DNA of 64,000 nt, taken from Alphaproteobacteria bacterium. Its GTDB lineage: Bacteria; Pseudomonadota; Alphaproteobacteria; Rs-D84. The translations under genes were made by a program, and so were the position numbers. The stretch covers positions 2,281 to 66,280 of the forward strand of contig JAFWZK010000058.1 of NCBI GenBank assembly GCA_017522445.1, in the 5' to 3' direction. The notes beneath the pieces are model-generated. The model saw only the letters and a program-made list of their open reading frames with translations. It was not told the origin of the DNA and did no database searches. The first letter of the stretch is position 1, and each line of letters begins with the position of its first letter. Positions 22,822 to 38,768 of this stretch are shown one piece after another.

Positions 22822-22839
22822 TTTTTTGGGAGGCGCTGT

Positions 22840-23934: not shown

Positions 23935-23935
23935 T

Positions 23936-23966
23936 TAAAAAACCTGGGGTGACGCCCCAGGTTTTT
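23936..23966. terminator. bidirectional terminator between the radical SAM gene and the phage-like cluster
   Basis: A-run, CCTGGGG-TGACG-CCCCAGG, then T-run, between convergent genes. Confidence 0.75.
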
Positions 23967-24456
23967 ATTCGGCGGACATGCCATATGCAACCCACATACC
24001 AGACATGTCCATCACCCAAGTATGCCATGTGTCGGCAATCTGGGTTCTGTGTCCAGAAAAACCAGTGGTTGTTATGTCGTATATGTTGATTGTAACTGCA
24101 CATATAGTTGCTGAGTCGCTAGACGATATGCTGACTGTTGGCGGTACCGCAAATGCTACGGGAAAATTTACACTGCGTCCTGATAATCGTCCACCCTGTT
24201 CCACCCAACCACTGCGATATTTGCGATACCATGTATAGTTGTTTTCAGATGTCGGCATTTGCCAGGCAATCACATAATCTGCCCCAGACATATCGGTAAT
24301 CGCATCTGCACGCGCCATTGGTGTGCCACCAGGTGTCGTGCCGTCGTGTACGCGAAGTGTGTTGTTCGTGGTGTCAACCGTTATTTCACCAACGGCACCT
24401 GTAAAGTTTTCGTGTTCGGCGGCCGTTCCACGCCGAAATTGTATTTGTCGTGACAT
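23965..24456 (-). CDS. tail fibre protein
   Basis: N-terminus IQFRRGTAAEHENFTGAVGEITVDTTNNTLRVHDGTTPGG is the widespread fibre N-terminal (Mtd_N-type) pattern. The C-terminus YTWYRKYRSGWVEQGG...VNFPVAF is a common fibre-tip pattern. Confidence 0.75.
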   Translation of the reverse strand: MSRQIQFRRGTAAEHENFTGAVGEITVDTTNNTLRVHDGTTPGGTPMARADAITDMSGADYVIAWQMPTSENNYTWYRKYRSGWVEQGGRLSGRSVNFPVAFAVPPTVSISSSDSATICAVTINIYDITTTGFSGHRTQIADTWHTWVMDMSGMWVAYGMSAE

Positions 24457-24484
24457 AAGAATATATTCCTTTGGTTATAAATAG

Positions 24485-24721
24485 TTATTTGATAACTGCA
24501 CCCTTAATCAGGGTCAGGTCTTCTTTGATATCGTCAATCTTGATTTGTATCTGGCCGATACCTGTTTCCAATATCGTTGTCCGATTTTCCAGCGATGTTA
24601 TGCGGGTGTCAAAACTTTCGTGTTCGGCAACAGATAAATCTTGGCGGGCCGCCCAATAGACCAGCCCACCAATGAAAACAATCAAAAACCAACTGTTACG
24701 AAGAAAATCTAGGATGTTCAT
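24485..24721 (-). CDS. small membrane-anchored coiled-coil protein (phage-type)
   Basis: N-terminal TM helix WFLIVFIGGLVYWAA followed by a heptad-like region. 4-nt overlap with the upstream gene. Confidence 0.5.
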   Translation of the reverse strand: MNILDFLRNSWFLIVFIGGLVYWAARQDLSVAEHESFDTRITSLENRTTILETGIGQIQIKIDDIKEDLTLIKGAVIK

Positions 24722-24921
24722 GACTTGTCCCCCCTGCCCCGTGAAATCAGTGATTCTATCTGACGAACCAGGGCACGTTGGGATTCAAGCCAGCGCAACT
24801 CGTTATCTGTGGCGTTCGGCCCCAGGGTGCGAGAAATAGTTATTTTCCGCAGGTAATCCAATACCTGCCCACCCGATGGCGTGCCAAAACAACGGGCAAA
24901 ACTTTGTTCAATTTCTGTCAC
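24718..24921 (-). CDS. small conserved portal-adjacent phage protein (Bbp19-like pattern)
   Basis: FGTPSGGQVLDYLRKITISRTLGPNATDNELRWLESQRALV resembles, from memory, the small proteins encoded next to portals of BPP-1-like podoviruses. Confidence 0.45.
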   Translation of the reverse strand: MTEIEQSFARCFGTPSGGQVLDYLRKITISRTLGPNATDNELRWLESQRALVRQIESLISRGRGDKS

Positions 24922-26159
24922 AGCGCATCACCCCCCAGTACACTTTCAATTGCTGTCATCTGGGCAATCGGGGCAATGTATTTTAATTCTGCATCGCCAT
25001 TTAGCTGGATTGGTGCTATCAAACCGCGGCGTGCCAATATCTGTAATCCACGGTCGCATAATGGACGAATAAACTCGTGCAATAAACGGCCATAGGTCGC
25101 ACCCAATATTCGCATCATGTCTGCATTGCGGGCCATGATTTCAGTGGCGGTCATTTCTTTTTCAGACAGCAATCCCAATCGGTCCGCCAACATGGCATGA
25201 CGAATGCGTTCACGTAAATCTTTCAGTATTAACTGGGATACGTCAAAGTTGGCAGCACTGTTCAATGGGGTCAAACCTGTTGAACCCACCGCCTTGGGGA
25301 TAATCGCCCCAGGGGTCAGGTTGATATTGTTCAGGTTAATCACACCATCATCGTCTGCCTGCCAGATGCCGGTAACCGCAATAGTTGCATTTTTTAAAAC
25401 CAGTTCAACAACCTTGTTCGCGGTTTTTATGTCCGGTAATGCACGCAGTACAGGTCCACGACCGTATAACTCGCCAGATGCCAATGACCAACGAAAGATT
25501 ATGTATGGATTCGTTTCAAATGTGCCACGGGACACAATGTTGTTTTCCAGTTCCCCACCAACATCCAACCAGGCCGTGAATTCAGTACCAACCAAGCTTT
25601 GAACCAAATTTAATGGGGCGTTTGGATTCTGGGTTATCATGTCACGTATATTTGATGGTGGCGTCCAGGTGGGATAACGTTCCAGAACCTCGTACAGGGG
25701 GATGGATGTGGTATGAAAAACAGCATCCGGTAAAATCGCAATATCTGTCATAGGCACCGCTGTAAATGTAAAGGCAGAGGACGAACCAAGGGGGGCCTCG
25801 GCCATAAATAGGCATGCGGTGCCATTTATCACCAAATCCATATAGCACTGGTGTATCGTGGTGTAAAAATTGGAATCGTTCAAATTAGCACGCAAAACAG
25901 CGGTCGCAATGTCTGCGTTCTGGGACATTTCACTTTCGCCCACCAGTTGCAGCCATAATGATTCTGGCGGTGTCAGCAATGTATAAATAGATGCCGCCAG
26001 ATTGTCCGCCGCATCTGATGCCGTGGCATCGTACAGTGTGGCTGTGTCTGAATCTGTGGCAGGTATCGTATAACGACGGGCATCGTCCCAGCGTGTCAAC
26101 CAGGGGGAACGCATGTCCAATGCACGTTTATACAGGTTTTGCAGGTTGTTTGGTTGCAT
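24918..26159 (-). CDS. portal (head-to-tail connector) protein, T7 gp8-type
   Basis: 413 aa. The N-terminal pattern LYKRALDMRSPWLTRWDDARRYTIP...AADNLAASIYTLLTPP matches the podovirus connector family as I recall it. It lies directly downstream of the terminase. Confidence 0.7.
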   Translation of the reverse strand: MQPNNLQNLYKRALDMRSPWLTRWDDARRYTIPATDSDTATLYDATASDAADNLAASIYTLLTPPESLWLQLVGESEMSQNADIATAVLRANLNDSNFYTTIHQCYMDLVINGTACLFMAEAPLGSSSAFTFTAVPMTDIAILPDAVFHTTSIPLYEVLERYPTWTPPSNIRDMITQNPNAPLNLVQSLVGTEFTAWLDVGGELENNIVSRGTFETNPYIIFRWSLASGELYGRGPVLRALPDIKTANKVVELVLKNATIAVTGIWQADDDGVINLNNINLTPGAIIPKAVGSTGLTPLNSAANFDVSQLILKDLRERIRHAMLADRLGLLSEKEMTATEIMARNADMMRILGATYGRLLHEFIRPLCDRGLQILARRGLIAPIQLNGDAELKYIAPIAQMTAIESVLGGDAL

Positions 26160-26189
26160 AAAAAAACTCCTTTGTGTGTGTTTTGTTTG

Positions 26190-27059
26190 TTAAACCGTAA
26201 AGTTTGTGTTTGCAGAATATGTTGTAATGGCACGACCACTGGGACGTACAATAAATGGCGTGTGCGCTATTGCACCGGCAACCGCGTCCAGACCATCATC
26301 GTGCATGCCAGATACACCGGCCGGTGACCAACCCAACATTTCTGATAAAAATGGGGTCTGACGAATGCGCATGTGGGCGTGCAGGCGACCTGTTGATAAA
26401 ACGGGCTCGATTGCGGACAGGATGCGGTCCGATTTGCTGCGACTGTTCTGAATCTTTGTTATGCGTACAGTAAAACCACGAGTGGCAGCACAATTACGCA
26501 TAATCTCGGGCAAGCCGCCACCAATGCCGTTGGTTTCCAAAACCAGATTATGCAAATTGCGACGCGACATAAAATCTAATACCTGGTCACACTGGTGCGA
26601 CAAAGGATATTGGATGCCGTCCGATACTGTTAAATACAAAATGTCATCAATAAAAATATGACGACTGTTATCATCACGATACAACAATACACAGGCACTG
26701 TTGTCACGATTGCGGCGACCAGATGATGGGTCCCAATACAGCACATGACCCGTTATCGTAAAATCCCCAATACTTGCAGTTCGCGGATTAAACTCGTCAG
26801 AATAAAATATAAGCGAACCAGGATCCAGACGTGTTCGTTCGGGCGGTATAAATTCCAATAGCATCTGAGATGAAAAATGACGATGACCAACCAAAGTACG
26901 CATCTGTTCTATGCGGGCAGCAGAAAATAATTCAGGCCAGGCAGAGGTACCGTCCGCATTAACTAGCGGAATTTTCAGGACTTTGTACCCAGATAAAAAA
27001 GGCGTTGAAAAAGCATTTTTTTCATATACCATGGGCATAGAAGAAAAGGATTGTGACAT
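26190..27059 (-). CDS. terminase large subunit, C-terminal (nuclease) fragment
   Basis: WPELF..IEQMR...FSSQMLLEF, then WDPSSG...LETNGIGGG...MHDDGLDA (RNase-H-like nuclease signature). It lacks any Walker motif. A possible own start at ATG 27059 is preceded by AGGGG. Confidence 0.7.
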   Translation of the reverse strand: MSQSFSSMPMVYEKNAFSTPFLSGYKVLKIPLVNADGTSAWPELFSAARIEQMRTLVGHRHFSSQMLLEFIPPERTRLDPGSLIFYSDEFNPRTASIGDFTITGHVLYWDPSSGRRNRDNSACVLLYRDDNSRHIFIDDILYLTVSDGIQYPLSHQCDQVLDFMSRRNLHNLVLETNGIGGGLPEIMRNCAATRGFTVRITKIQNSRSKSDRILSAIEPVLSTGRLHAHMRIRQTPFLSEMLGWSPAGVSGMHDDGLDAVAGAIAHTPFIVRPSGRAITTYSANTNFTV

Positions 27060-28623
27060 GGATTTTACCCCTAAGACATTACCAACCAATTTAGAAGCAG
27101 AACAGGCCGTGTTGGCCGCTGTGTTGATGAAAAACCGCGCACTGGAACAGGTGGGTGAATTCCTGAATGCAAAACACTTTTCACACCCCGCACACCAAGA
27201 AATCTATCGGTTGGCGGAAAAACAATTCGCAGCAGGTATACCGTTTGATATTATTACCGCAAAAAACTATCTGGACCAACAGGGGGTTCTGGAATCAGTG
27301 GGCGGTGTTGAATACCTTAGCCAGCTGGCCAGTGCAGGCACAACAGTTGTAAATGTTGAACAATATGGACGAATAGTTTATGAAAATGCACTGCGACGCG
27401 ATTTAATCGCACTGGGCCAGGAAATCACAGACAAGGCATTCATAGAAGACCTGGATAATCCCGTGGCACGACAAATCGAAGCCGCAGAACAAAAACTGTT
27501 CGATATGGCAACCACAGGTGCATCAGAACGTGAAATTACATCTATTTCAAGTGCACTGGATGCCGCCATGGCCGAAGCAGAAATCGCATACAAGGCAGAT
27601 GGACAATTGTCTGGTTTAACAACTGGACTGAATGCACTGGATACATCAATCAGCGGTCTGCATCATTCTGACCTGATTATTATCGCAGGACGACCCGCAA
27701 TGGGAAAAACAACACTGGCAATGAATATCGCATTTAATGCAGCAAATGCAATCGCACATGGACGGGCCAATAAAAACTATACAGGGGCGGTCGTATTTTT
27801 CAGTCTGGAAATGTCCGCGTCCCAGCTGGCGGCACGTGTGCTGTCTTCGCAATCGCGGGTCAAGGCATCGTCTATGCGTGAAGGTACGCTGACCGATGAA
27901 GATTTCCTGAAAATGTCCCAGTATGCCGCAGCCATTTCCAAGGTGCCACTGTTCATAGATGATACCGCAGGTATGTCTGTGCCAATGATGCGTACACGGG
28001 TGCGGCGACTGGCCAGAAAACATGGTGGTATCGCATTGATTGTTATTGACTATTTACAATTGATGACATCACCCGGCGGTAAACACAATGATAATCGTGT
28101 CCAGGAAATTTCCGAGATTACACGTGGCCTTAAAATGCTGGCCAAAGAAATGGATGTGCCAGTTATCGCACTGTCTCAGTTATCGCGTAGCGTGGAATCA
28201 CGTGATGATAAACGACCAATGTTGTCAGATTTGCGTGAATCAGGTTCAATCGAACAGGACGCCGATATCGTTATGTTTACATATCGCGAAGAATACTATT
28301 TGCAAAACCGCGATCCAAATGAACGAATTTCAAATAATACCAACGATAAAATGCATGATTCTTGGCAAAACAGAATGGATCGTGCACGCGGCAAGGCCGA
28401 TATAATCATCGGTAAAAACCGCCATGGAAGACCCGAAACCGTCAGAACCGCTTTCTTTGGCGATTTCAGCTTGTTCGATAACCTGGAAGAGTTCGAGGCA
28501 CGCGGTGAAAACGAATACGCTCAGCCCGCCCCCACAATCTCGGCAGCCAGTCTGATGAACGAAGACGATGTAATGCCAACACCAATCGATGATGATGCAA
28601 TTCCAGATGATATGCCGTTGTAA
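27058..28623 (+). CDS. dnaB: replicative DNA helicase DnaB with an acidic C-terminal extension
   Basis: LPTNLEAEQAVLAAVLM N-terminal domain, GRPAMGKT Walker A and a RecA-like core ending DIIIGKNRHGRP. Start refined to MDFTPK (ATG 27058) behind AAAGGA. Confidence 0.92.
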   Translation: MDFTPKTLPTNLEAEQAVLAAVLMKNRALEQVGEFLNAKHFSHPAHQEIYRLAEKQFAAGIPFDIITAKNYLDQQGVLESVGGVEYLSQLASAGTTVVNVEQYGRIVYENALRRDLIALGQEITDKAFIEDLDNPVARQIEAAEQKLFDMATTGASEREITSISSALDAAMAEAEIAYKADGQLSGLTTGLNALDTSISGLHHSDLIIIAGRPAMGKTTLAMNIAFNAANAIAHGRANKNYTGAVVFFSLEMSASQLAARVLSSQSRVKASSMREGTLTDEDFLKMSQYAAAISKVPLFIDDTAGMSVPMMRTRVRRLARKHGGIALIVIDYLQLMTSPGGKHNDNRVQEISEITRGLKMLAKEMDVPVIALSQLSRSVESRDDKRPMLSDLRESGSIEQDADIVMFTYREEYYLQNRDPNERISNNTNDKMHDSWQNRMDRARGKADIIIGKNRHGRPETVRTAFFGDFSLFDNLEEFEARGENEYAQPAPTISAASLMNEDDVMPTPIDDDAIPDDMPL

Positions 28624-28695
28624 TTATTTTACTTGCACCATAATTAAAAATTGACTATTATTTTGTCAAGAAACAATAGTTTTAGGAGTTTTATT

Positions 28696-29703
28696 ATGGC
28701 CCAAGAAGAAATTATATTTCCAAATAATATACGCAATATTCGCCTGGCCAAGGGAATGAAAATGACCGACCTGGCCAGACGGGCAGATTTATCGTTGTCT
28801 GCGGTTTCTAAAATCGAAAAGGGTGTTCGCAGACTGAACCAAAAACAATTACTGCGTATCTGCAATATCTTGGGATGCAAGTTGTCCGATGTGTTTATCA
28901 AAGAATCTGATGCCGTCGCCGACCAATGGCAAAGCGAAATTAAACGCAGATTAAGCGACAATGAAAACAGCGGATTAAAAGTCTTTGGCAGCGGAATGCG
29001 TAAAATTCGCCAGCAGTCCGGAAAAACTATTGCACAGGCCGCAAAAGACGCAGGTATGACACTGTCTGTGTACCATAAAATCGAGGTTGGACAACGCGAA
29101 ATCTATAAAAATGAAATCGAACCGTTGGCGGCTTCGTTCGCAATGAAAACAGAAGAACTGTTCGATAAAATCGCAAACTTGTACAAATCCGGTGAATTGA
29201 ATAAACATATCAGCAAGGTCAAGGAACGTGTTAAATCTGTTCTGGTGCCGGGAAATCCGTTGTCGGGTATCGATATGCAGGGCAGTTTATATGGCGCAAA
29301 ACTGTATGACAGTGCACGTAAAAAACTGGTGCCAGTGTTCGGAACCCCGTCCGGTAAAGCAATCGCATTTAATAAATCTGACTCTGCAATGATTATCGCA
29401 CCATCCGAACTGGAAGGACGAAAAGGTATCTATGCCATTATGCCCAATACCAAAAGAATGGGGGGGATGATACCAGAAAAATCATACATCTTTGCAGATG
29501 CACTGACACAGGCAAAACCAGGTGATTTGGCCGTGTGTCTGGATGTGGACTTTGATACGCTGGGGACCGATGAAACCGTTAATGCACAAGTTGCAATCAT
29601 TAAACAGGATTCCAGGGGTAAAGTTCTGGGACACATCCTGGGGCCTGATGAAAAAATTACACCAAAAACAATGCACAAAGTTATTATGGTTGTCATGGAA
29701 TAA
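28696..29703 (+). CDS. transcriptional regulator with two XRE-type HTH domains and a degenerate S24/LexA-like C-terminal domain
   Basis: IRNIRLAKGMKMTDLARRADLSLSAVSKIEKG and MRKIRQQSGKTIAQAAKDAGMTLSVYHKIEVG. The C-terminus has a LexA-like fold pattern, with MGGM where GxSM is expected. Start refined to MAQEEI behind AGGAG. Confidence 0.75.
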   Translation: MAQEEIIFPNNIRNIRLAKGMKMTDLARRADLSLSAVSKIEKGVRRLNQKQLLRICNILGCKLSDVFIKESDAVADQWQSEIKRRLSDNENSGLKVFGSGMRKIRQQSGKTIAQAAKDAGMTLSVYHKIEVGQREIYKNEIEPLAASFAMKTEELFDKIANLYKSGELNKHISKVKERVKSVLVPGNPLSGIDMQGSLYGAKLYDSARKKLVPVFGTPSGKAIAFNKSDSAMIIAPSELEGRKGIYAIMPNTKRMGGMIPEKSYIFADALTQAKPGDLAVCLDVDFDTLGTDETVNAQVAIIKQDSRGKVLGHILGPDEKITPKTMHKVIMVVME

Positions 29704-29733
29704 TTCAAACAATATACCCAGAGAGAGAATACA

Positions 29734-30375
29734 ATGAATACAAAATCCAGTGCAACAGCATTAAAACTGTTAAATCTGTACCGCCAAGAACACGTTATAA
29801 TCGGCGGTTGGGCCGCCGTCAATCAGGTCTTTGTCGCACAGGCAAATGATGATGTTATCCGGGAACTGAAAAATATGCCAACAGGTAAATCACTGGTTCA
29901 ACACATAGAAAACCTGAGAAGCGGCAAAACACCAATGGATTCAATCGAACGTGATTTAATGCCATATGGCGGAATGATGCTGGATTCAACTGTGCCTTCA
30001 ATCAAACTGGATGATAATCAGTGGCAGGAACTGGAATATGGTATCGATAACTTTACACCAGATCAGGCAGGATTGGAAACCTTTACCGCACTGGGGGTGG
30101 TGCAAAAGTTCGGAACAGAATGGATTACCGCAATCGCAGATGCAATAAACCAAAAACCATACCTGCGAGATAAATGGAATATCATAACCCAGACATATAA
30201 TGCATATCGACTGTGGAATACAGCAAATGAAATTATCGCAACCCCAATTTCAGAACGCGTCCGCGGTCAGGTCCAGGCCGATATGCCAGAATACGAAACA
30301 TATCTGCCAATGTTCGGTGATGCGGGTATGCAATTGCTGGAAAAATTAAGAACCATTATCAGCAGTTTAAAATAG
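29734..30375 (+). CDS. hypothetical protein (213 aa)
   Basis: Intact ORF, last gene of the plus-strand insert. Its end overlaps the stop of the terminase ATPase fragment by 9 nt. No motif recognised. Confidence 0.5.
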   Translation: MNTKSSATALKLLNLYRQEHVIIGGWAAVNQVFVAQANDDVIRELKNMPTGKSLVQHIENLRSGKTPMDSIERDLMPYGGMMLDSTVPSIKLDDNQWQELEYGIDNFTPDQAGLETFTALGVVQKFGTEWITAIADAINQKPYLRDKWNIITQTYNAYRLWNTANEIIATPISERVRGQVQADMPEYETYLPMFGDAGMQLLEKLRTIISSLK

Positions 30376-30987
30376 TTCCCCCTGCCCCGTATCTGTGCGA
30401 TATATCGTATCGTGTGTGTGCGGTGTTCCTATGTATACCATGGCACCGGTGGGCGATAATATAAAATCCAGTTCACGTAATCGTTCACGCAGGTCTGCAC
30501 GCTTTTGCAGGGTGTTTGATGTGTTTGGAACCTCGACGTCATCACATATAATTAAATCTGCACGCATGCCAGTGATGTTGCCGTGTATGCCCTGGCATAT
30601 GACAGACGGCTCGCGGATGCCAATGGGGCGATTGACCGTTATTCGACCCATCGACCATTCTTTTTTATTCGATGGAACCAAATTGCTGCACCAGGGATGA
30701 TTTTCCAATATGTGACGAATGTGCGATACCATACGGGTCGACAACCCTGATTCCGCAGATAATATTAATATACGTGTTTGGGGATATAAATACAAAACAC
30801 AGGCCGCAAAAATCCCAACAACCGTGGATTTGCCCGAATGACGAAATGCCATCAGCAATCCACGATGCGGTGAATCACACAATACACCATACAGAAATTC
30901 CAATATCTGACGATGATGACGTGGCGTTTTTAACCCCAATACTCGATTCCATTCGTCCAAAAAATCATAAAATACCGTAATCATCAC
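30367..30987 (-). CDS. terminase large subunit, N-terminal (ATPase) fragment
   Basis: Walker A-like FRHSGKST, Walker B DLIICDD and the coupling motif IGTP. The stop comes 21 codons after IGTP. Confidence 0.75.
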   Translation of the reverse strand: MMITVFYDFLDEWNRVLGLKTPRHHRQILEFLYGVLCDSPHRGLLMAFRHSGKSTVVGIFAACVLYLYPQTRILILSAESGLSTRMVSHIRHILENHPWCSNLVPSNKKEWSMGRITVNRPIGIREPSVICQGIHGNITGMRADLIICDDVEVPNTSNTLQKRADLRERLRELDFILSPTGAMVYIGTPHTHDTIYRTDTGQGELF

Positions 30988-31516
30988 GATTTTCGTTCGG
31001 TGCAGGTTCTGTTATGACACCATAGTCATTTATCAATTTCGGCAACGCATTTTCCAATACACCCAACAGATTTCTGTACAACCCCATTACCGACCCGCCC
31101 GATAATTTGTCATTTATTACAGAATGGGTATAGTCAATTAACGATTTAATGTTATCATGACGGTTCGCCCATTGCGATAAATCAATGTTGACCGAATGTA
31201 AATCCTGGAATGCAGATAACAAAAAGTTAAAGTCAGAGTTTAAATCTTCGGGATCTATTTGGGCCGTTGGCTGATAGTCAATCGTACGTGATAATGATAT
31301 TTGTCTGAAAATGTCCAGACGTGTGCCTGTTTCCGGGGCAATATCAAAAACAACATTGCCACCAGAAAAATCAGAGTTTGGTATCACAGTAAAATTAGCC
31401 CCGTGATTATCTAAAACCTCGTTTATCGCAACGCAAATGTCCGCGACCTGAAAAAACGGAAAGGAAAATGCAAACTCGGTCGTCGTGCCGTCCGCAATAT
31501 AAGATATTTTGTACAT
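30965..31516 (-). CDS. tail-fibre adaptor protein with a T7 gp17 N-terminal-like domain
   Basis: YIADGTTTEFAFSFPFFQVADICVAIN...IDYQPTAQIDPEDLNSDFNFLLSAFQDL follows the Y..DG....F.IPF...V pattern of podovirus fibre N-termini. Confidence 0.55.
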   Translation of the reverse strand: MYKISYIADGTTTEFAFSFPFFQVADICVAINEVLDNHGANFTVIPNSDFSGGNVVFDIAPETGTRLDIFRQISLSRTIDYQPTAQIDPEDLNSDFNFLLSAFQDLHSVNIDLSQWANRHDNIKSLIDYTHSVINDKLSGGSVMGLYRNLLGVLENALPKLINDYGVITEPAPNENRDDYGIL

Positions 31517-31539
31517 ATTTATACCCCCATGACCTGTTC

Positions 31540-31887
31540 CTAGCCAACCAAATCATCAAATCTGGATAAAATTGATCGCAGCAAGTTTGGCTTTTTAGCA
31601 GTACTTTGTTTTAACTTTTTCAAATTATTACGACGTTTTTCTTCGTATGGGGCCGCGGTTTCAGAACGCAAACGTTCCAATACGCGACCGGCGGTCATGC
31701 CTGATGCAGATACACCAGACGAACCATACTTGGCGCGCTGGGCGGCCAAGACTTTTTTCACCAGATTCGTCTTTTCTGTGTTATCTGTCGCCATCTGGGC
31801 AAGAATTTCTTTGCGTTGGCTTTTTGCCTGCTTCTTGGCATCTTTATAGTCCAAGATTTCTGTCACATCTGATACAAGTTGTCCCAT
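31540..31887 (-). CDS. small basic virion-associated-type protein, unknown function
   Basis: 115 aa, Lys/Arg-rich and predicted helical. It sits between tail genes. Confidence 0.4.
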   Translation of the reverse strand: MGQLVSDVTEILDYKDAKKQAKSQRKEILAQMATDNTEKTNLVKKVLAAQRAKYGSSGVSASGMTAGRVLERLRSETAAPYEEKRRNNLKKLKQSTAKKPNLLRSILSRFDDLVG

Positions 31888-31950
31888 GTGTTTTCCTTTG
31901 CTTTGTTTGATTTGTTTTATGTGTTATTAAAATTGTTGGCACAATGATAA

Positions 31951-33666
31951 CTAGATCATGTACCAGCCATGTAAACTGACCGATAAAACAGTCAGCGGAT
32001 ATGATTCTGTACCGTGAATTGTCCATGGCGGGCGTATACAGTCATGTGCTGTACCCAATAAATTCAGCGAAACATCACCACTGAAACCAGGTGAATCCGC
32101 GGCATATATCACATTAGGTAAACTGATGCGTTGATTGTTAATGTGTAATGATTTGGAATCCAATAATCGGGCAACCAGTTTTCTTAACCGTATCCGACGT
32201 GGATTATGCCCCGATGCCCGCAACGGTAAACCAGAGGCAATATATGCAAAACTGAACGTGCCACAATCGTCCTGACAATCTGAATCAAAGTATTCCAGAC
32301 TGATTACCCCTGAACGCTTGACCGCGACGTATGTGCGACCATCTGTAACCGCAACCGATAAAAAATCGCCCGCTGTGCGGTATGTGCACCATGCAGAAAT
32401 ACCAACCGATGAATTCTGGTTTAAAACGGCCATAATACCATCTGAACGAACAATGTACAGTCTGCGTTCAGTCGCGTTATAGCACATGTCAACAGGAACC
32501 TGCATCAGGTGCTTGGCCATAACAGATAAATCATTGGCGTTATAGTTTTCACCTAACTCGTCCAGCCCCAGTTCGCGCAAATCACAACCACTGGCGGAAA
32601 TAAAGATTGTCGAACCTTCGATTTTCTGGGGTGGCAAATATCGCGATGTGTACGAGCCAACTGATGTGTGCTGCTTGATATCAACAGACGATGGGGTCAG
32701 CGGTTTGCTGGATATCGCCCATTCGCCCGCATTCGTCAATATCTGCAAATTTTCACTGCTGACCAGGGTGCAAATCTGTTGACGCTGTTGCGATAATAAT
32801 GATATGAAAATCGCTTCGTCATCCAGGCCTGTGCCACCGTCAAAATTGTTGTGACGCCCAACCTGGGACATCCAAATGCCCGCAGGCCAATCGCGCGAAC
32901 CACCAAATACCAATCTGTCCTGGTGAAATGTGATACTGCGGGGCCATCCACGGCGGGAACCAAAGGCCGCCTCGGACCAAGATGATACCGGGGATGATGG
33001 TAATGAATACGAACCGTTTGTGTGGGCAACAATCTGGGTGGAAGATATATATTCCGCAACCGTCCATTGGCGATCCAATAAATACAGCCGACCATTTACA
33101 TTATCAGGTGTCCAAAAATCACGATTGGTCGTAAATGTCGCATAATTATTGCCAGAACTGTTGGCTGTGACGGTTATCGTAATGTCCGATGCATCATCAA
33201 AGCGAACAAACGGTATGTTCAGCGTCATGTCCGAATCATTGCGGGAAAATGTAAAGTCCGAAATGTAAAATCTGTCCGGATGTTTGACCAGCGTCTGGGG
33301 ACAATGGTCAGGATGAACAAATATCATCGTACCAAAACGCTGGGCATACTGCAGATTGGATAAATCTGCAACTGACCATGGTGTTATCAAATCCTGGACC
33401 AAATCGCCCCCCAGATATATGTCCATGTGAAAATCCGTCAGGGCAAGCAAATATTCCGCACCGTCCGATACCGAAAATGATATCAGGCGTGCTTGCCCAA
33501 CCAAATTGTCAATGTGACGCAACCCATAACGACGCGATAAACCACCACCAGATATAACATTCATATTCTCTAAACGGGACAGACCATTTATATTATCACT
33601 GGTGTAAAATTCTGGGGCAACTTCGCCGTTTGCAAACGAGTTTTGTGTCTTTATAAAATCTGTCAT
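31951..33666 (-). CDS. large tail protein (tail tubular protein B / nozzle-like)
   Basis: 571 aa directly after the tubular-A-like gene. The N-terminus FANGEVAPEFYTSDNINGLSRLENMNVISGGGLSRRYG resembles podovirus tail-tube/stabilisation proteins as I recall them. Confidence 0.5.
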   Translation of the reverse strand: MTDFIKTQNSFANGEVAPEFYTSDNINGLSRLENMNVISGGGLSRRYGLRHIDNLVGQARLISFSVSDGAEYLLALTDFHMDIYLGGDLVQDLITPWSVADLSNLQYAQRFGTMIFVHPDHCPQTLVKHPDRFYISDFTFSRNDSDMTLNIPFVRFDDASDITITVTANSSGNNYATFTTNRDFWTPDNVNGRLYLLDRQWTVAEYISSTQIVAHTNGSYSLPSSPVSSWSEAAFGSRRGWPRSITFHQDRLVFGGSRDWPAGIWMSQVGRHNNFDGGTGLDDEAIFISLLSQQRQQICTLVSSENLQILTNAGEWAISSKPLTPSSVDIKQHTSVGSYTSRYLPPQKIEGSTIFISASGCDLRELGLDELGENYNANDLSVMAKHLMQVPVDMCYNATERRLYIVRSDGIMAVLNQNSSVGISAWCTYRTAGDFLSVAVTDGRTYVAVKRSGVISLEYFDSDCQDDCGTFSFAYIASGLPLRASGHNPRRIRLRKLVARLLDSKSLHINNQRISLPNVIYAADSPGFSGDVSLNLLGTAHDCIRPPWTIHGTESYPLTVLSVSLHGWYMI

Positions 33667-33691
33667 TTGTTGTTTTCCCTTTGGTAAATTG

Positions 33692-34210
33692 TCAAAAACG
33701 GCTGGTGATTAATGAAAAGTCAGTCAAACACGAAGGGGCAGATGTTGTGCTGTCCAGATATTTTGCAGTCTGTAATTCCGTTTCATACAACGCCGCCAAC
33801 ATGCGAAATACCGTTTGATCACCCAACAAGGGAATACAAAATTCCATCGCCAAACGCGTCACCGCCAATGATATAAAATAACTGGGGAACTGTTCCGGTG
33901 ATACACGCCGAAGAACAACAACAGACACACTGTCTGAATCAGATATAATCCGATTGCCTGTAATATCACCGTCCGAACGTAATACACGCAATACATCCGA
34001 TGGAATCAAAAAATCGCCATCTGTATTGCGAACCAAATCCAATTGGGCCGTCGCAAAACGCCATGGATGCAGCGATATCAAAGAATCTGTGATAACATCA
34101 AACAATGTACGTGAAAGTTTGGCGGCCGCACTGTCGTCCGTCAATGACTGGATTGGCTGTTCCCCCAGTTTTAACAGTGCCATAGAACATAAATCTATTT
34201 TGGTTAGCAT
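33692..34210 (-). CDS. tail tubular protein A / head-tail adaptor-like
   Basis: MLTKIDLCSMALLKLGEQPIQSLTDDSAAAKLSRTLFDVITDSLISLHPWRFA matches the widespread podovirus pattern (..AL..LG...I.SL.D.S..A......Y......LL....W.FA). Confidence 0.55.
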   Translation of the reverse strand: MLTKIDLCSMALLKLGEQPIQSLTDDSAAAKLSRTLFDVITDSLISLHPWRFATAQLDLVRNTDGDFLIPSDVLRVLRSDGDITGNRIISDSDSVSVVVLRRVSPEQFPSYFISLAVTRLAMEFCIPLLGDQTVFRMLAALYETELQTAKYLDSTTSAPSCLTDFSLITSRF

Positions 34211-34287
34211 TTTTTGACCCTTTGGTTATGTTATGAATAAAATTGGGCCGAAATTAATCGGCCCGAACATAAGAAAATAAAAAACAT

Positions 34288-34521
34288 TTATGCCAATGCA
34301 ACCGTAGTCACATTTAATTCAGTGATATTAATTCTTTTAATCGCCGTGTTGTCAGATGCGTTAATAATTACAATATCACCAATGTTCATCAGCGTTTTTA
34401 CACCATTAAAATACCCGTTCGCAGTAATAGTAGACATCGTTTCAGATGCACTGCAATAGTGCCACAATGTAAAACCATTTGCATATGCAATCACGGATAA
34501 GTTTTTGTTCTGAAATGCCAT
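34288..34521 (-). CDS. small phage protein downstream of the capsid gene (possible decoration/accessory head protein)
   Basis: MAFQNKNLSVIAYANGFTLWHY... Start refined to ATG 34521 behind AAAGGA. Function unknown. Confidence 0.45.
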   Translation of the reverse strand: MAFQNKNLSVIAYANGFTLWHYCSASETMSTITANGYFNGVKTLMNIGDIVIINASDNTAIKRINITELNVTTVALA

Positions 34522-34556
34522 TTGTGTTTTCCTTTTGGTTAATGATGATATTAATT

Positions 34557-35384
34557 TTATGCGCTCAAAGAATCTGAACATTTAACGCGAACAATACCTG
34601 TGTCGTCTATTAACACCGCACCCTGAGACATGCTGTTGCTGATAAAGTGGGCAGCACGCTCTCCGTGCCATGAAATGTCAGTCTTGACATCCTGACCACA
34701 GGCATGACCAATGCTGGACGCATGATAGATAAAGCAGTCACGATTTGTACCCGATACGGGCAAACCATTGTGCAGAACCCATGTAATGCCCAACCATTTG
34801 CGGGCAATACCACCATTTAACAACGGGGCAGTATTACCAACATAATCCGCCGAGACAAACTCGTCCAGCGACAACAGCTCGTTCCACTGGTGTACGCCAA
34901 CAACTGCAAAGCGGCGGCCATCATCTGGAACGTCGTTTGTATTTAATACCTCGACTGCAGATAAAATCAATTCTTTGGTCAGCCCTGTTGAATAATCCCC
35001 AACTGTTGCCGTTGCATCATTCATTGCCGAGATAATCAATTCATCTGTTTTACGCCCCAATGCGTATGCACCCGCAGATGCAACAACACGACGTTCGTCT
35101 ATGTTCGTTTTTAATTCATCCAATGCGTCAACCCAATCGCCCGCATAGTAATCCATCAGCATGCATTCAACAGGTTCATGATTTAAATTCATAACAGGTA
35201 CAATGCCATGACGTGATTTTGTGCTGGCTGTGCCACGCCCAACCTTTTGAAACGTGGTAGATGCACCAATTACACCAGATTTACTGCGAACAGTTGAACG
35301 CAGTTTCGTGCCCATTTGCTGGTACGCCAAATGAACATCCGCTTCGAATTGTTTCACAAATACATTATCTATGGAAACAGACAT
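34557..35384 (-). CDS. major capsid protein
   Basis: 275 aa downstream of the scaffold-like gene. VFVKQFEADVHLAYQQMGTKLRSTV...GRKTDELIISAM resembles podovirus capsid proteins as I recall them. Confidence 0.6.
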   Translation of the reverse strand: MSVSIDNVFVKQFEADVHLAYQQMGTKLRSTVRSKSGVIGASTTFQKVGRGTASTKSRHGIVPVMNLNHEPVECMLMDYYAGDWVDALDELKTNIDERRVVASAGAYALGRKTDELIISAMNDATATVGDYSTGLTKELILSAVEVLNTNDVPDDGRRFAVVGVHQWNELLSLDEFVSADYVGNTAPLLNGGIARKWLGITWVLHNGLPVSGTNRDCFIYHASSIGHACGQDVKTDISWHGERAAHFISNSMSQGAVLIDDTGIVRVKCSDSLSA

Positions 35385-35592
35385 ACAATAATCCTTTTGG
35401 TTAAGTAAAAATTAAATTGCAGTATTTATAAAATAAACACTGCAGGTGTATTTTGTGTTCTGGTTATGCATAACTGCGCCATAAAACAAAAAAGGTTATT
35501 TCGGGTTCACACCAATGTGTGAATTGTCCGATAAAAAATGAAAGAAAAAATATCAGTCAGACTGTGCACGTTAATCTGACTGATACTGATTC

Positions 35593-35615
35593 AAAAAAAC
35601 CCCGCAATCGCGGGG
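35593..35615 (-). terminator. intrinsic terminator after the Lys/Ala-repeat gene
   Basis: On the minus strand: CCCCGC-GATT-GCGGGG followed by TTTTTTT. Confidence 0.7.
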
Positions 35616-35623
35616 AATATTTA

Positions 35624-36100
35624 TTATTTTTTCTTGCACACTTTCTTGGCAACAGGTTTTTTTGCAACCGGTTTTTTAATTGCGGCTTTTTTTACAACTG
35701 GTTTTTTCACCGCAACTTTTTTTGCAGGTGCAGCTTTCTTTGCGACTGGTTTTTTCACCGCAACTTTTTTCGCAGGTGCAGCTTTCTTTGCAACTGGTTT
35801 TTTCACCGCAACTTTTTTCGCAGGTGCAACTTTCTTTGCAACTGGTTTTTTTACCGCAACTTTTTTCGCAGGTGCAACTTTCTTTGCAACTGGTTTTTTC
35901 ACCGCAACTTTTTTCGCAGGTGCAGCTTTCTTTGCGACTGGTTTTTTCACCGCAACTTTTTTCGCAGGTGCAGCTTTCTTTGCAGCCGGTTTTTTCACTG
36001 CAACTTTTTTCGCAGGTGCAGCTTTCTTTGCGACTGGTTTTTTTTCTTCTGCTTTTTTGACCGCTTCTTTTTTGCGTATTCTTAAAAATGGAAATGCCAT
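35624..36100 (-). CDS. Lys/Ala/Pro-repeat, histone H1-like basic protein
   Basis: 158 aa made almost entirely of KKPVAKKAAPAKKVAV units. Own RBS (AAGGAGAG) and terminator. The three plus-strand ORFs over the same DNA are repeat artefacts. Confidence 0.7.
   Translation of the reverse strand: MAFPFLRIRKKEAVKKAEEKKPVAKKAAPAKKVAVKKPAAKKAAPAKKVAVKKPVAKKAAPAKKVAVKKPVAKKVAPAKKVAVKKPVAKKVAPAKKVAVKKPVAKKAAPAKKVAVKKPVAKKAAPAKKVAVKKPVVKKAAIKKPVAKKPVAKKVCKKK
35697..36032. repeat. tandem repeat, 7 x 48 bp, in frame
   Basis: Unit ACTGGTTTTTTCACCGCAACTTTTTTCGCAGGTGCAGCTTTCTTTGCA starts at 35697, 35745, 35793, 35841, 35889, 35937 and 35985, with only point differences. Degenerate partial copies lie on both sides. 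Confidence 0.95.
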
Positions 36101-36211
36101 TCTTCTCTCCTTCTAGGTGTTTTGTTTGAATAGAACAAATCCGTTTTGTTCTTGGTTTCTATTTTATCATGAAACATGAAACCGAGTAAAGCAGAAAAGT
36201 AATTTTTTTCA

Positions 36212-36868
36212 TCATGAATATAATTTTTTAAATCCATTTTCTATTTTACGTATGTATTCAACATCGTTATCACGCCAGTATTTTGGGTCACGCATCATAC
36301 GACGTAAATCAGAATCTGTCAGATTGTCGGATGCAGAGTTTTCCGTATGAACATTTGGTTCCATTGATTGCATCATTTTGTAAATGCTTTGTATTCCCTG
36401 GGGTGTAGAACATAACTCGGTAAATGCATCGTGTGGTAAAAATCGTTCACCAAATGTGTTTATTTCACGTAATGCATGTTGCATTTTTTCATTTCCACCA
36501 AAAAAATTCTGCAGCTGAGTTATTGCATTGCTTTCATCCTGGACAGAAAATATTTCTGATATCAATGGTGATAAAAATTCGTTCGCAATGTTATAAATTT
36601 CAGAAACCTGATTACAAGTTAACCCTAGGTCAAAAAATTTCTGACGCAACATTTCATCATCGTATAGTTCATTTGTTGGATACTCGGACGCAGATGATGG
36701 GACGCCAATTGCACGATTAAACTTTTGACGTGTTTCATCGTCTGCATCGGCCGATGGAATTGATACCATACCACCAATCTTTTTTTCTAATTCTTTGTAC
36801 GAACGTACCAACGCGTCTGTATTCAACGTACCATCATTGTTTAAAAATTTTTCTGGGATATTATCCAT
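36212..36868 (-). CDS. scaffolding protein-like
   Basis: MDNIPEKFLNNDGTLNTDALVRSYKELEKKIGG resembles the N-termini of phage scaffolding/capsid-assembly proteins. It is helical and acidic and lies upstream of the capsid gene. Start refined to ATG 36868. Confidence 0.5.
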   Translation of the reverse strand: MDNIPEKFLNNDGTLNTDALVRSYKELEKKIGGMVSIPSADADDETRQKFNRAIGVPSSASEYPTNELYDDEMLRQKFFDLGLTCNQVSEIYNIANEFLSPLISEIFSVQDESNAITQLQNFFGGNEKMQHALREINTFGERFLPHDAFTELCSTPQGIQSIYKMMQSMEPNVHTENSASDNLTDSDLRRMMRDPKYWRDNDVEYIRKIENGFKKLYS

Positions 36869-37058
36869 TATCTTTTCCTTTGGTTTCATTTGAACGGCGT
36901 AAAAAATAAATTCCAGCCAATGTGAATATTGCCTGCAACATTGTAAACAGATCTGTGTCACCAACCAGGTATGCCCCCAGTGCCGATACAATACCAGTTG
37001 CAGAAATTATATATGTTCGATACCCAGACAGATATCCACCACGTATAAACTTGCGCAT
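36861..37058 (-). CDS. holin-like small membrane protein (two TM segments)
   Basis: MRKFIRGGYLSGYRTYIISATGIVSALGAYLVG..LQAIFTLAGIYFLRR with a charged C-terminus, directly after the cell-wall hydrolase gene. Confidence 0.45.
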   Translation of the reverse strand: MRKFIRGGYLSGYRTYIISATGIVSALGAYLVGDTDLFTMLQAIFTLAGIYFLRRSNETKGKDNG

Positions 37059-37074
37059 ACTGTGCACCCCGCGA

Positions 37075-37485
37075 CTAAAGATAAAACAGTACATTGTCTA
37101 TGTCCGCAATGTATCCACGTGCAATCGCCCAGTCGGGTAATATATCGGCGTGATGAAATGCGGTCGCACCATTACAACAATCAGGTAACATACCAGATAA
37201 CATTCGCTTTGCCGTGCGAACACACATCTGAAAATGACGCGAATCCGCAGGAACAGTTAATCGTTCGTGATGCGGAGAACTTTCGTCCAGTACAGAAAAA
37301 ATTTTCATGTCACGAATTATTTCATGCATTGAACGGTTCGTCTTGATGGACAGGTTCCTTATCATCGTGGTCATTGCTTCGACCAACCGCAGCGACGTGC
37401 CACCTGTTTGTGCATAAACAACACGTGCAATCTGATACGCCAATGATGCAGATGCATCCGGATTCGGTATAATAGTTAACTGCAT
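37075..37485 (-). CDS. cell wall hydrolase (SleB/Hydrolase_2-like)
   Basis: LAYQIARVVYAQTGG...VEAMTTMIRN...NGATAFHHADILPDWA...FY follows the SleB-family pattern. Confidence 0.6.
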   Translation of the reverse strand: MQLTIIPNPDASASLAYQIARVVYAQTGGTSLRLVEAMTTMIRNLSIKTNRSMHEIIRDMKIFSVLDESSPHHERLTVPADSRHFQMCVRTAKRMLSGMLPDCCNGATAFHHADILPDWAIARGYIADIDNVLFYL

Positions 37486-37512
37486 TGCAATACCTTTTTA
37501 TGTCTGAGTATG

Positions 37513-37537
37513 AAAAAACCACGTGATGGACACGTGG
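37513..37537 (-). terminator. leader terminator 2 upstream of the phage-like cluster
   Basis: On the minus strand: CCACGTG-TCCAT-CACGTGG then TTTTTTC. Confidence 0.6.
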
Positions 37538-37541
37538 AAAT

Positions 37542-37568
37542 AAAAAAACGCCACAACCTTTGTTGTGG
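37542..37568 (-). terminator. leader terminator 1 upstream of the phage-like cluster
   Basis: On the minus strand: CCACAAC-AAAG-GTTGTGG then CGTTTTTTT. Confidence 0.6.
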
Positions 37569-37595
37569 ACACAATCTTTGCTGTTTATGTCGTGC

Positions 37596-37624
37596 AGTAT
37601 ACCATATTTTCAGCACAAAGTCAA
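37596..37624 (-). promoter_or_regulatory. sigma70-type promoter of the phage-like cluster
   Basis: On the minus strand: TTGACT, a 17-nt spacer, then TATACT. Confidence 0.55.
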
Positions 37625-37635
37625 GAACTTTTTTT

Positions 37636-38326: not shown

Positions 38327-38768
38327 TACTGTATACCCCCTTGGTATTTCTGATAAAATTATGCCCGTATGTTTTTCGTAACTGGTAAATCGCCGTATCA
38401 ACTGTGTGCGTTGCCGCATCGGGTGCATAGCCCAATGCATGTTTTAACTGATTGGCGGTCATGCCACCACTTTTATACAACAGCACCAACAGCTGGCTTT
38501 GAATCTGGGGCAGCGATACATTTTTCCCAAAGATTTCGTATAAAACACGACCAATGTCGGCCGCATCCAGAATTAAAGACTTAAGTTCCAGCAACCCAAC
38601 AGACGGTGGAACAGATAAATCATCAAAATTTATAACGGAAATGCTGGGCTTTTCATGAACAGTCGCATTCAGGTCAGAAAATATCTGGCGCCATATTGGG
38701 TCTGAACTGAATATTTGAATGCCCGTAAACATATATAAATGGTAAACAATCTGCAATAAAATGTCCAA
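38313..38768 (-). CDS. OmpR/PhoB-type winged-helix DNA-binding protein with a short, degenerate receiver-like N-terminus
   Basis: C-terminus HTVDTAIYQLRKTYGHNFIRNTKGVYSIGEL. The N-terminus has IQIFSSDP where a receiver would have hhhhDDDP and is too short for a full REC domain. Confidence 0.55.
   Translation of the reverse strand: MDILLQIVYHLYMFTGIQIFSSDPIWRQIFSDLNATVHEKPSISVINFDDLSVPPSVGLLELKSLILDAADIGRVLYEIFGKNVSLPQIQSQLLVLLYKSGGMTANQLKHALGYAPDAATHTVDTAIYQLRKTYGHNFIRNTKGVYSIGEL

Follow-up and report, generated by a model that had tools for sequence, protein, structure and literature searches.

Among the genetically defined gene transfer agents (GTAs) of Alphaproteobacteria we know of two phage lineages, neither of which has been shown to be of the podovirus type. 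RcGTA (Rhodogtaviriformidae) of the Rhodobacterales is encoded by a compact head-tail cluster of ~14-15 kb without integrase or replication genes, is inherited vertically and evolves more slowly than its phage homologues; accessory genes are found at other loci and the particles are released by lysis. A locus resembling RcGTA in these traits, with release by lysis being predicted, lies in a stretch of 64,000 nucleotides (nt) from an Alphaproteobacteria bacterium of the Rs-D84 lineage (GCA_017522445.1, JAFWZK010000058.1, positions 2,281-66,280 of the forward strand), which is referred to as the window in the following. The particle locus spans positions 23965-37625 (~13.6 kb) and consists of minus-strand gene groups on both sides of a 3.3-kb plus-strand cassette, which separates the two halves of the gene for the large terminase (TerL). 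It is probably a vertically inherited, podovirus-derived particle locus that is kept by selection, i.e., a GTA-like 'viriform' of Candidatus Enterousia/Rs-D84, and would then represent a third, podovirus-type lineage of alphaproteobacterial GTAs. The locus is predicted to encode a complete head, a DNA-packaging motor, a short tail and a lysis set, without means of its own for replication, integration or excision, which is the gene content of a GTA; the embedded dnaB gene is of the host type. The original prediction had described a single minus-strand array free of replication and lysogeny genes. Both statements have to be corrected, as the TerL halves lie 3.3 kb apart with three plus-strand genes between them, and as the host-type dnaB and a repressor-type regulator are found inside the locus.

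The resemblance to RcGTA does not extend to the genes themselves. RcGTA is siphovirus-like with an HK97-type capsid and a protease, whereas the present locus combines a capsid of family PF19821, a portal of family PF12236, tail tubular proteins A and B and a T7-type TerL. No RcGTA-type families were matched in Pfam or PHROG, the two clusters have no gene in common beyond the fold level, and a split TerL with an embedded dnaB occurs only here. BaGTA (Bartonella, Bartogtaviriformidae) is a domesticated alphaproteobacterial element as well, and its capsid operon is under the control of a processive antiterminator acting past a leader terminator, a mode of control that may also apply to the present locus. 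The antiterminator of BaGTA is the Q21-like protein BrrG; the operon has an attenuating leader and a termination site that BrrG bypasses (bioRxiv 10.1101/2024.11.20.624540). Going by description, both elements have a tie to DNA replication, run-off replication in BaGTA and dnaB here. However, BaGTA is coupled to a phage-derived replication origin and not to a host helicase gene, and no split terminase has been reported for it. The GTA-like element of Faecalibacterium prausnitzii (FpGTA) has been published as probably podovirus-like, with its genes distributed over two loci and with packaging shown experimentally (PMC12946183), which renders the earlier statement that no podovirus-type GTA is known outdated. 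As far as descriptions can be compared with a locus known from its genes alone, FpGTA shares the gut bacterium as host, the podovirus-like character and the distribution over several loci, but belongs to a Firmicute and has not been reported to contain a split terminase.

The calls for the head, tail and lysis genes, all of which lie on the minus strand, rest on profile searches against Pfam, PHROG and NCBIfam, and each structural gene call of the original prediction found profile support there, weak in the case of the hydrolase. This cell-wall hydrolase of the SleB/Hydrolase_2 type (37075-37485; phrog_938 endolysin, E = 1.7e-7; Pfam Hydrolase_2 with 23 bits, below the cutoff of 27) is encoded by the first gene of the operon and is homologous to the hydrolase closing a related cluster in Roseomonas. 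The adjacent gene encodes a small holin-like protein with hydrophobic segments (36861-37094), which is conserved in 26 loci, has no match in the three family databases and may be a holin by position alone. The open reading frame of the T7-type scaffold (36212-36889; Pfam PF05396, E = 1.7e-6) extends to 36991, with 36889 or 36868 as the probable start, and its product shares 34% identity with the Roseomonas scaffold (E = 2e-53). Between scaffold and capsid, every Rs-D84 locus encodes a Lys/Ala/Pro repeat protein resembling histone H1/HC2 (35624-36100, 158 amino acids (aa); Pfam HC2, E = 1.4e-15; NCBIfam H1-like model, 79 bits at a cutoff of 80), with a conserved MAF.FLK N-terminus and a length of 83-164 aa depending on the repeat number. 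The gene is absent from the Roseomonas cluster. Possible roles of its product are DNA condensation or that of a capsid cargo. The major capsid protein (34557-35384, 275 aa; Pfam PF19821, E = 4e-72; phrog_3437) is 79-98% identical between species, with a ratio of nonsynonymous to synonymous substitutions (dN/dS) of 0.067. It is followed by a small protein of ~77 aa, counted from a conserved ATG (34288-34521; phrog_18004, E = 1.4e-10; dN/dS 0.056), which is a candidate decoration protein and occupies the same place behind the capsid gene in related phages.

The tail is represented by tubular protein A (adaptor, 33692-34210; phrog_394, E = 6e-30, and a weak match to Pfam Tube) and tubular protein B (nozzle, 31951-33666; phrog_376, E = 2e-82), the latter with 51-90% identity across 43 loci and a dN/dS of 0.12. 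At the position of podovirus internal proteins lies the gene of a basic 115-aa protein (31540-31887), which is present in 42 loci (dN/dS 0.16) and has no match in Pfam, PHROG or NCBIfam. Next comes a fibre adaptor of the T7-gp17-N type with 183 aa and without a distal domain (30965-31516; phrog_1640, E = 7e-12; weak match to Pfam Phage_T7_tail), which aligns with the N-terminus of a 760-aa tailspike of Roseomonas; its gene is missing in at least ten species-level loci (L010, L011, L027, L030, L034 and others). On the far side of the cassette, the portal or podovirus head-to-tail connector (24918-26159; Pfam PF12236, E = 5e-82; phrog_332) shows 74-91% identity and a dN/dS of 0.078. It is accompanied by a Bbp19-like small virion protein (24718-24921; Pfam PF25181, E = 2.9e-9), whose gene comes after the portal gene in related phages as well, and by a 78-aa protein (24485-24721) with an N-terminal hydrophobic segment of the membrane type, as judged by eye, which matches nothing in Pfam, PHROG or NCBIfam and is 68-97% identical in 29 loci (dN/dS 0.11). 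The array ends with a short tail fibre or receptor-binding protein of 163 aa (23965-24456; Pfam Mtd_N, E = 1.9e-17; C-terminal H_lectin, E = 9e-5; phrog_9648 tail). With 0.26, its dN/dS is the second highest of the cluster after that of the hydrolase (0.29), and its gene is found at this position, behind the 78-aa gene, in 13 of 30 species. The boundary at the fibre gene is a rearrangement hotspot.

Every open reading frame of the locus is intact, and its GC content, as measured, is host-like, in line with what had been noted by eye. The remaining ~50 kb of the window contain no integrase, recombinase or DNA polymerase and carry housekeeping genes such as those for BamA, RseP, RRF, RecG, RNase E/G, PriA, MiaA, GAPDH and ParC, so that no contiguous prophage complement adjoins the cluster within the window. 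Att-like direct repeats and a replication module were likewise not found, and a scan with Rfam at gathering thresholds returned three tRNAs and nothing else.

Whether such a cluster is specific to one strain was addressed by scanning GTDB, with each species represented by one genome, for the tubular-B protein, using exact peptide patterns. The scan yielded 43 loci in 42 species-level metagenome-assembled genomes, all of them from Candidatus Enterousia or from gut and termite Alphaproteobacteria. In every locus of sufficient length, gene order and orientation were identical, with TerL-N on one side of the 213-aa gene, the regulator gene and dnaB, and TerL-C on the other, and birA flanked the cluster in all but one of the loci reaching that side. 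The same arrangement was present in 14 contigs of IMG/VR. Up to 42 loci have open reading frames of constant length, for example 407-413 aa for the portal (30 of 30 loci) and 567-580 aa for tubular B (40 loci), without the frameshifts in relatives that would have spoken for decay. Purifying selection is apparent from dN/dS values (Nei-Gojobori) of 0.06-0.29 for the cluster genes, the hydrolase being at the upper end; birA has 0.225. When the window is compared with L001, its nearest relative, the number of synonymous substitutions per site (dS) of most cluster genes is 0.27-0.87 (fibre 1.83), broadly similar to that of birA (0.79). Moreover, the pairwise distances of the capsid correlate with those of DnaB (Spearman 0.89), and the capsid is the slower of the two (mean p-distance 0.14 versus 0.18). 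More than 120 capsid clusters were seen at 85-92% identity, and the chromosomal contigs that carry them reach 969 kb. The constant order, the intact reading frames, the low dN/dS and the tracking of DnaB by the capsid rule out both a remnant in decay and a prophage of recent acquisition. Vertical inheritance with slow evolution, as seen here, is also what is expected of a GTA. The idea of a domesticated particle locus instead of a decaying prophage, put forward in the original prediction, is thereby strongly supported. The genomes of Enterousia and Rs-D84 have sizes of 0.75-1.0 Mb, and Rs-D84 hosts have reduced, dependent life-styles (PMC12306168). As these genomes are under about 1 Mb, the 13.6-kb locus makes up ~1.5% of them. 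Hosts of this size lose useless DNA fast, and it is a striking sign of function that the capsid lags behind the replicative helicase in its rate of evolution.

Among free phages, marine podophages of the HTVC010P group come nearest, with capsid identities of 45% to Pelagibacter phage Hodr and of 33% to HTVC010P; the earlier label 'T7/BPP-1-type' therefore holds only loosely. Phages of this type are the closest free-phage relatives also in the portal (32%), Bbp19, scaffold and tubular A and B proteins, and share the relative gene order, which runs from portal, Bbp19, scaffold, capsid and small protein to tubular A, tubular B and then large internal proteins. They differ from the locus in being full phages of 32-35 kb, equipped with replication genes as well as with internal virion proteins of large size (784 and 1248 aa), at whose place only the 115-aa protein is found here. 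In addition, the TerL of Hodr has no match (E ≤ 1e-2) to the TerL of the locus, and the gene orders of Enterousia and of the HTVC010P type are circular permutations of each other. Membership in the Autographiviridae is not indicated either, since the shared families are limited to those of TerL, scaffold, portal, tubular proteins and fibre adaptor, and neither a single-subunit RNA polymerase nor T7-type replication genes nor a gp14-16 core were found in locus or window.

A second, sister family emerged from the IMG/VR scan. It comprises compact one-strand clusters of 12-13.5 kb with a capsid that is 56-60% identical and with an intact TerL of 480 aa; an S24 repressor is present in its loci (L061-L074, L126 and L132-L134). 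An exact look-up assigned sister clusters to cultured Roseomonas/Muricoccus, to Roseospira/Rhodospira and to Hwanghaeella. At least eight named Roseomonas/Muricoccus species fall into one capsid cluster at 90% identity, and Muricoccus roseus and M. pecuniae share the site of the cluster, where catalase, asd, lysS and mprF are followed by the S24 repressor and by the cluster, which ends in Hydrolase_2. Integrase and replication genes were absent from the clusters of these two species. Rhodospira and Hwanghaeella have permuted versions, the latter with a weak match to GTA_holin_3TM. Within a wider alphaproteobacterial family that evolves slowly, the Enterousia locus is thus the derived member. 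In the literature, no description was found of the locus in Enterousia/Rs-D84, nor of GTAs in Roseomonas, Rhodospira or Roseospira. As the sister family occurs in cultured Roseomonas/Muricoccus, the question of the particle is open to bench work, for which the relatives in Roseospira/Rhodospira and Hwanghaeella may be tractable too.

The most unusual trait of the Rs-D84 locus is its split terminase. The N-terminal half (TerL-N, 206 aa; 30367-30987, minus strand) contains Walker A, Walker B and a GTPH motif and covers positions 2-196 of the NCBIfam model termin_lrg_T7 (228 bits; model length 500 positions), and the C-terminal half (TerL-C, 289 aa; 26190-27059, minus strand) provides the rest of the ATPase domain and an RNaseH-type nuclease and covers positions 332-500. 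The split at about residue 208 is clean. Positions 273-459 of phrog_38 correspond to TerL-N and 468-704 to TerL-C, residues 46-211 of T7 gp19 (8dgc) align with TerL-N, and the intact 480-aa TerL of Roseomonas matches TerL-N with residues 12-208 and TerL-C with residues 210-463. When joined in silico, the halves aligned in tblastn as a single piece (residues 6-480) with intact phage TerLs. The locus hence carries the full motif set of a T7-type terminase on two reading frames 3.3 kb apart, as a two-gene variant and not as one polypeptide. Both halves look functional, as suggested by their motifs: Walker A (FRHSGKS) and Walker B (DLiiCDD.EVPNT) are invariant in 44 TerL-N sequences, in which GTPH is also kept, and the nuclease motifs YWDPS and hDDG.DA are invariant in 36 TerL-C sequences; the dN/dS is 0.11 for TerL-N and 0.17 for TerL-C.

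Three ways of restoring a single TerL polypeptide were considered and rejected. The Rfam scan revealed no intron, an intein is contradicted by the lack of intein-sized extra sequence (3 unaligned residues in TerL-N and ~20 in TerL-C), and programmed rearrangement by cassette borders without direct repeats. A single 15-nt inverted repeat (27053-27067/30462-30476) has 3-6 mismatches in other species, where ~6 are expected by chance. With no intron, intein or recombination site found, two TerL polypeptides are expected. Two-polypeptide TerLs are not unheard of, as PHROGs contain half-size terminase families (phrog_4758 and phrog_5573). In herpesviruses, the terminase ATPase gene UL15 consists of two parts flanking opposite-strand genes, which are joined by splicing; the present locus differs in this last respect. 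The split predates the present cassette, as two distant relatives keep it with different inserts. In L059 (4731-10749), TerL-N is directly followed by dnaB and an 834-aa gene and then by TerL-C. In L038 (5366-7662), from a termite gut, TerL-N, the 213-aa gene and the regulator gene stand together before an unrelated BamA block, and dnaB and TerL-C are located elsewhere. The borders of the cassette are tight. The stop codon of TerL-N overlaps that of the 213-aa gene by 9 nt, and the divergently oriented genes TerL-C and dnaB have overlapping start codons within a CATG palindrome, a junction that is conserved in about 30 species and in which the Shine-Dalgarno sequence of each gene lies within the coding sequence of the other. 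A terminase gene split by a probably essential host gene, with ribosome-binding sites and the dnaB promoter inside opposite coding sequence, is a new architecture. It bears on two-piece packaging motors, on antisense control of the 'excludon' type and on the undeletability of domesticated elements.

The cassette comprises three plus-strand genes. The first, dnaB (27058-28623), encodes a replicative helicase of the host type, as indicated by the alphaproteobacterial equivalog model NF006606 of NCBIfam (612.6 bits, cutoff 540) and by a score below the cutoff of the phage_DnaB model. It is 72-97% identical in 34 loci and probably essential to the host. The second gene (28696-29703) encodes a regulator of 335 aa with two helix-turn-helix domains of the XRE type (two stretches of Pfam HTH_3) and an all-beta C-terminal domain. 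With a dN/dS of 0.08 it is the best-conserved non-structural gene. Searches with its AlphaFold 2 (AF2) model, which is of low confidence (predicted local distance difference test (pLDDT) 58), gave the full-length lambda repressor 3bdn (E = 5e-5) and LexA C-domains as best matches, and this fold search alone hints at a CI-like architecture. Membership in the S24 family at the sequence level is unsupported: Pfam S24 was not matched, and against the Roseomonas S24 repressor BLASTP yielded nothing and hhalign a probability of 1.6%. In that non-significant alignment, Arg takes the position of the catalytic Ser of S24. The third gene (29734-30375) encodes an all-helical, lineage-restricted protein of 213 aa (AF2 pLDDT 77.7), which is always linked to TerL-N and the regulator. 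None of its 1273 homologues bears a name, and Pfam, PHROG and NCBIfam contain no match.

The right end of the locus has the layout of a regulated late operon. Across 25-26 species, the spacer between birA and the hydrolase gene contains, in this order, a -35 hexamer, an extended -10 hexamer, a leader box, two terminators and the Shine-Dalgarno sequence and ATG of the hydrolase. Consensus scan and conservation point to a near-consensus sigma-70 promoter (TTGACT-17-TATACT with an extended -10 TG) plus the leader box CATAAACAGCA.AGATT at 37573-37624 on the minus strand; in 25-26 species the -35 hexamer TTGACT does not vary and the leader box is conserved. The two tandem intrinsic terminators (37519-37568, minus strand) were recognized as hairpins with a T-run, and 23 of 26 species have at least two of these in the leader. 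Their stems covary, differing in sequence yet keeping their pairing, with one pair being CG in 10 species and AU in nine. Promoter, short terminated leader (37624-37519; 23-26 species) and a following set of lysis and morphogenesis genes correspond to the lambdoid, Q-type late layout. The late operon of lambda (PR'-tR'-Q) is alike in its strong promoter, short terminated leader and lysis plus structural genes and differs in that no Q-like family or fold was found here. In the Roseomonas cluster, a tandem-terminator leader was looked for and not found. Further terminators follow downstream. A strong bidirectional one (CCCCGCGATTGCGGGG, then a T-run; 35600-35615) is placed behind the Lys/Ala gene, and a terminator-like hairpin occurs in the gap between scaffold and capsid in 29 of 29 loci; another intrinsic terminator (34245-34264, minus strand) lies behind the capsid/small-protein pair, where 18 of 40 loci have strong hairpins under a strict rule. 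No terminator hairpins were present at tight gene junctions in the loci scanned. The original prediction had seen the locus as bounded by terminators. This holds for the left border, where a perfect bidirectional intrinsic terminator (AAAAAACCTGGGGTGACGCCCCAGGTTTTT, 23939-23968) separates the radical-SAM gene from the fibre gene, but not fully for the other side, since the two hairpin terminators adjoining birA are located downstream of the conserved promoter and thus act on the cluster's own transcript and do not form a border only.

Beyond the cassette no comparable start point is visible. A putative dnaB promoter (TTGAAA-16-TACCAT) with a Shine-Dalgarno sequence is located at 27005-27050 on the plus strand, inside the first TerL-C codons, and was derived from a consensus scan and from nucleotide conservation: the fraction of identical codons among 29 species is 0.64/0.90/0.79 for TerL-C codons 1-36, against a background of ~0.45-0.5. 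The 5' part of dnaB shows no such extra constraint (0.54/0.47/0.58 versus 0.52) and so gives no sign of a conserved antisense promoter for TerL-C. At the cassette borders, the overlapping gene ends leave no room for terminators. We infer that TerL-C, the portal, the Bbp19-like protein, the 78-aa protein and the fibre would be reached only by antisense read-through from 37.6 kb.

These elements can be combined into a possible course of events. The promoter beside birA would fire into the short leader, with transcripts ending at the two tandem terminators, a layout that is itself observed and conserved. An antiterminator, controlled by the CI-like regulator or by an adjacent OmpR-type protein, might then render RNA polymerase resistant to termination, so that a late transcript would run past the internal terminators behind the Lys/Ala and capsid genes and continue, antisense to all three cassette genes, into TerL-C, portal and fibre. 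Such read-through would oppose the expression of dnaB and the regulator together and commit the cell to terminal particle production and lysis. The T7-type TerL would consist of two separately made chains, one forming the ATPase core and the other the lid plus nuclease, and the particles would be filled with host DNA, given that no small terminase is recognisable and that the locus has no replication of its own. Accessory parts, namely a second fibre gene and a MuF-lysozyme, may be encoded elsewhere in the genome. In its widest form, this reading describes an old podovirus-type GTA family of Alphaproteobacteria (Rs-D84/Enterousia, Roseomonas/Muricoccus, Rhodospira/Roseospira and Hwanghaeella), whose Rs-D84 members have TerL split round dnaB and express the distal half, portal and fibre only via antisense, antiterminated read-through. 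This combined picture is possible, though it should be regarded as tentative and rather doubtful as a whole. If it holds, commitment to particles would be mechanically coupled to a shut-down of chromosome replication, and the entanglement with dnaB would shield the locus from deletion in a shrinking genome.

Several points weigh against a GTA-like role of the locus. Its hosts are uncultured, and particles, packaged DNA and transfer are all deduced from gene content. The use of exact peptide patterns leaves the share of Rs-D84 genomes with the locus uncertain. Neither a small terminase nor gp14-16-like ejection or internal-core proteins were recognised in the locus, which makes delivery of DNA into a recipient doubtful. 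A head with room for about 35-40 kb could take up the whole 13.6-kb locus, unlike in the classical definition of a GTA; the related phages hold 32-35 kb. CI-like regulators are typical of prophages and of PBSX-type defective phages too. As to expression, a weak or non-conserved promoter of TerL-C is possible, and the antisense read-through over 3.3 kb is one that we infer. The 213-aa protein was tried as the antiterminator; this is unsupported by any Q-like family or fold, and its AF2 model gave no Foldseek match at E ≤ 0.001 in PDB or BFVD, Q proteins included.

The missing ejection proteins would fit with a killer particle, i.e., a defective phage that packages random host DNA, cannot inject it and acts on competitors or in another surface-directed role. 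PBSX of Bacillus, whose type of defective phage comes nearest to the locus in kind together with the alphaproteobacterial GTAs, is such a chromosomally fixed, conserved particle locus with a repressor of the Xre/CI type, and its particles package host DNA and are released by lysis. The XRE/CI-type regulator of the present locus, the 115-aa protein in place of the 784- and 1248-aa proteins of related phages, and a fibre that is the fastest-evolving structural part and stands at the locus in 13 of 30 species all agree with such a function. On the other hand, the MuF-lysozyme encoded elsewhere in the window could be an ejected muralytic protein, and the packaging motor is strongly constrained. 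PBSX itself is myovirus-like and SOS-induced, and its particles kill without transferring DNA, whereas the catalytic Ser is apparently lacking here, according to the non-significant alignment mentioned above. A killer particle is accordingly seen as unlikely, with a modest chance of being the right explanation.

The histone-H1-like gene between scaffold and capsid, which all Rs-D84 loci have and the sister family lacks, raises the idea of a domesticated particle with another function, for example the delivery of the Lys/Ala protein or other cargo to neighbours or to a eukaryotic host, with the terminase serving a specialised substrate. The reduced and dependent life-style of the hosts would suit this idea. 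Yet portal and terminase are strongly constrained, which argues for DNA packaging and makes a cargo particle improbable. More improbable still is an autonomous mobile element, such as a minimal temperate phage, or a satellite dependent on borrowed replication and integration functions, that spreads horizontally. A complete set of virion, packaging and lysis genes, a repressor-like regulator and the listing of the loci as viral contigs in IMG/VR would be compatible with it; one chromosomal site and order in 43 loci of 42 species-level genomes, co-divergence with dnaB and birA, a host-type and probably essential dnaB inside, the host-like composition and the failure to find an integrase, att-like direct repeats or a replication module speak against it. 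A decaying prophage remnant awaiting deletion, for which the interrupted TerL, the missing internal-core genes and the loss of the adaptor gene in some species could be cited, can hardly be reconciled with intact, constant-length reading frames under purifying selection, with invariant catalytic motifs in both TerL halves and with a capsid evolving more slowly than DnaB in genome-reduced hosts.

Two genes elsewhere in the window may belong to the GTA-like particle locus as detached parts, an idea of the original prediction that has gained support. The second Mtd_N-type fibre gene proved to be real. It (3-461, plus strand) is unlinked to the cluster and encodes the C-terminal 152 aa of a fibre with 52% identity to a full-length homologue of 188 aa in L128 (Pfam Mtd_N, E = 8e-12), and in both genomes the gene lies beside ackA. 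A HDG.T.GG..ARAD motif is common to this second fibre and the fibre of the cluster. The other gene (10934-11851, minus strand) encodes a protein in which a MuF-like domain is fused to a GH108 lysozyme and a peptidoglycan-binding domain (Pfam GH108, E = 2.6e-15; PG_binding_3; weak Phage_Mu_F). Its residues 45-153 match minor-head and head-morphogenesis families of PHROG, and endolysin phrog_315 is matched as well. This protein is plausible as a capsid-borne, ejected muralytic component and may belong to the system; a metagenome scan returned four loci only, too few for judging conservation.

The two Mtd_N fibre genes (3-461, plus; 23965-24456, minus) are inverted and ~23.5 kb apart, and bracket a segment whose position varies between species. 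Their conserved 5' parts might recombine and so exchange receptor-binding ends, which is put forward as an idea only. Directly upstream of the fibre paralogue in L128 lies the gene for a 797-aa protein without family match (4337-6730). Its counterpart would fall just beyond the left end of the window and might be a missing large virion protein. Next to the fibre gene of the cluster, a stretch of low GC content (0.37-0.40; 19000-24000) carries glycosyltransferases and the radical-SAM gene, and this flank is poorly conserved among species (27-39% identity or missing). Where a species lacks the fibre gene, the neighbour of the cluster is an o260/VirB8-like/BamA block, which is placed at 2.4-7 kb in this window. 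On the opposite flank, a 151-aa protein (38313-38768) with a weak match to OmpR-type winged-helix domains (Trans_reg_C, E = 1e-3) is encoded next to birA and the cluster promoter in every locus reaching that far and is a candidate regulator.

Some loci contain additional small genes with the appearance of morons in the gaps between TerL-C and portal or between portal and Bbp19 (L012, 17626-17961; L037, 11434-11859; also L017, L025 and L006). By eye, their products have N-termini like those of signal peptides or lipoproteins, some are rich in Cys, and sometimes the gene has a terminator of its own. Finally, the present results concern database hygiene, as IMG/VR currently files these chromosomal loci under viral contigs (L046-L059), some pieces of which include birA and dnaB. 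A 5-kb GenBank scaffold from human faeces labelled 'Bacteriophage sp.' (MT838907.1, L045), whose capsid is 65% identical, may likewise be a related element and not a phage.

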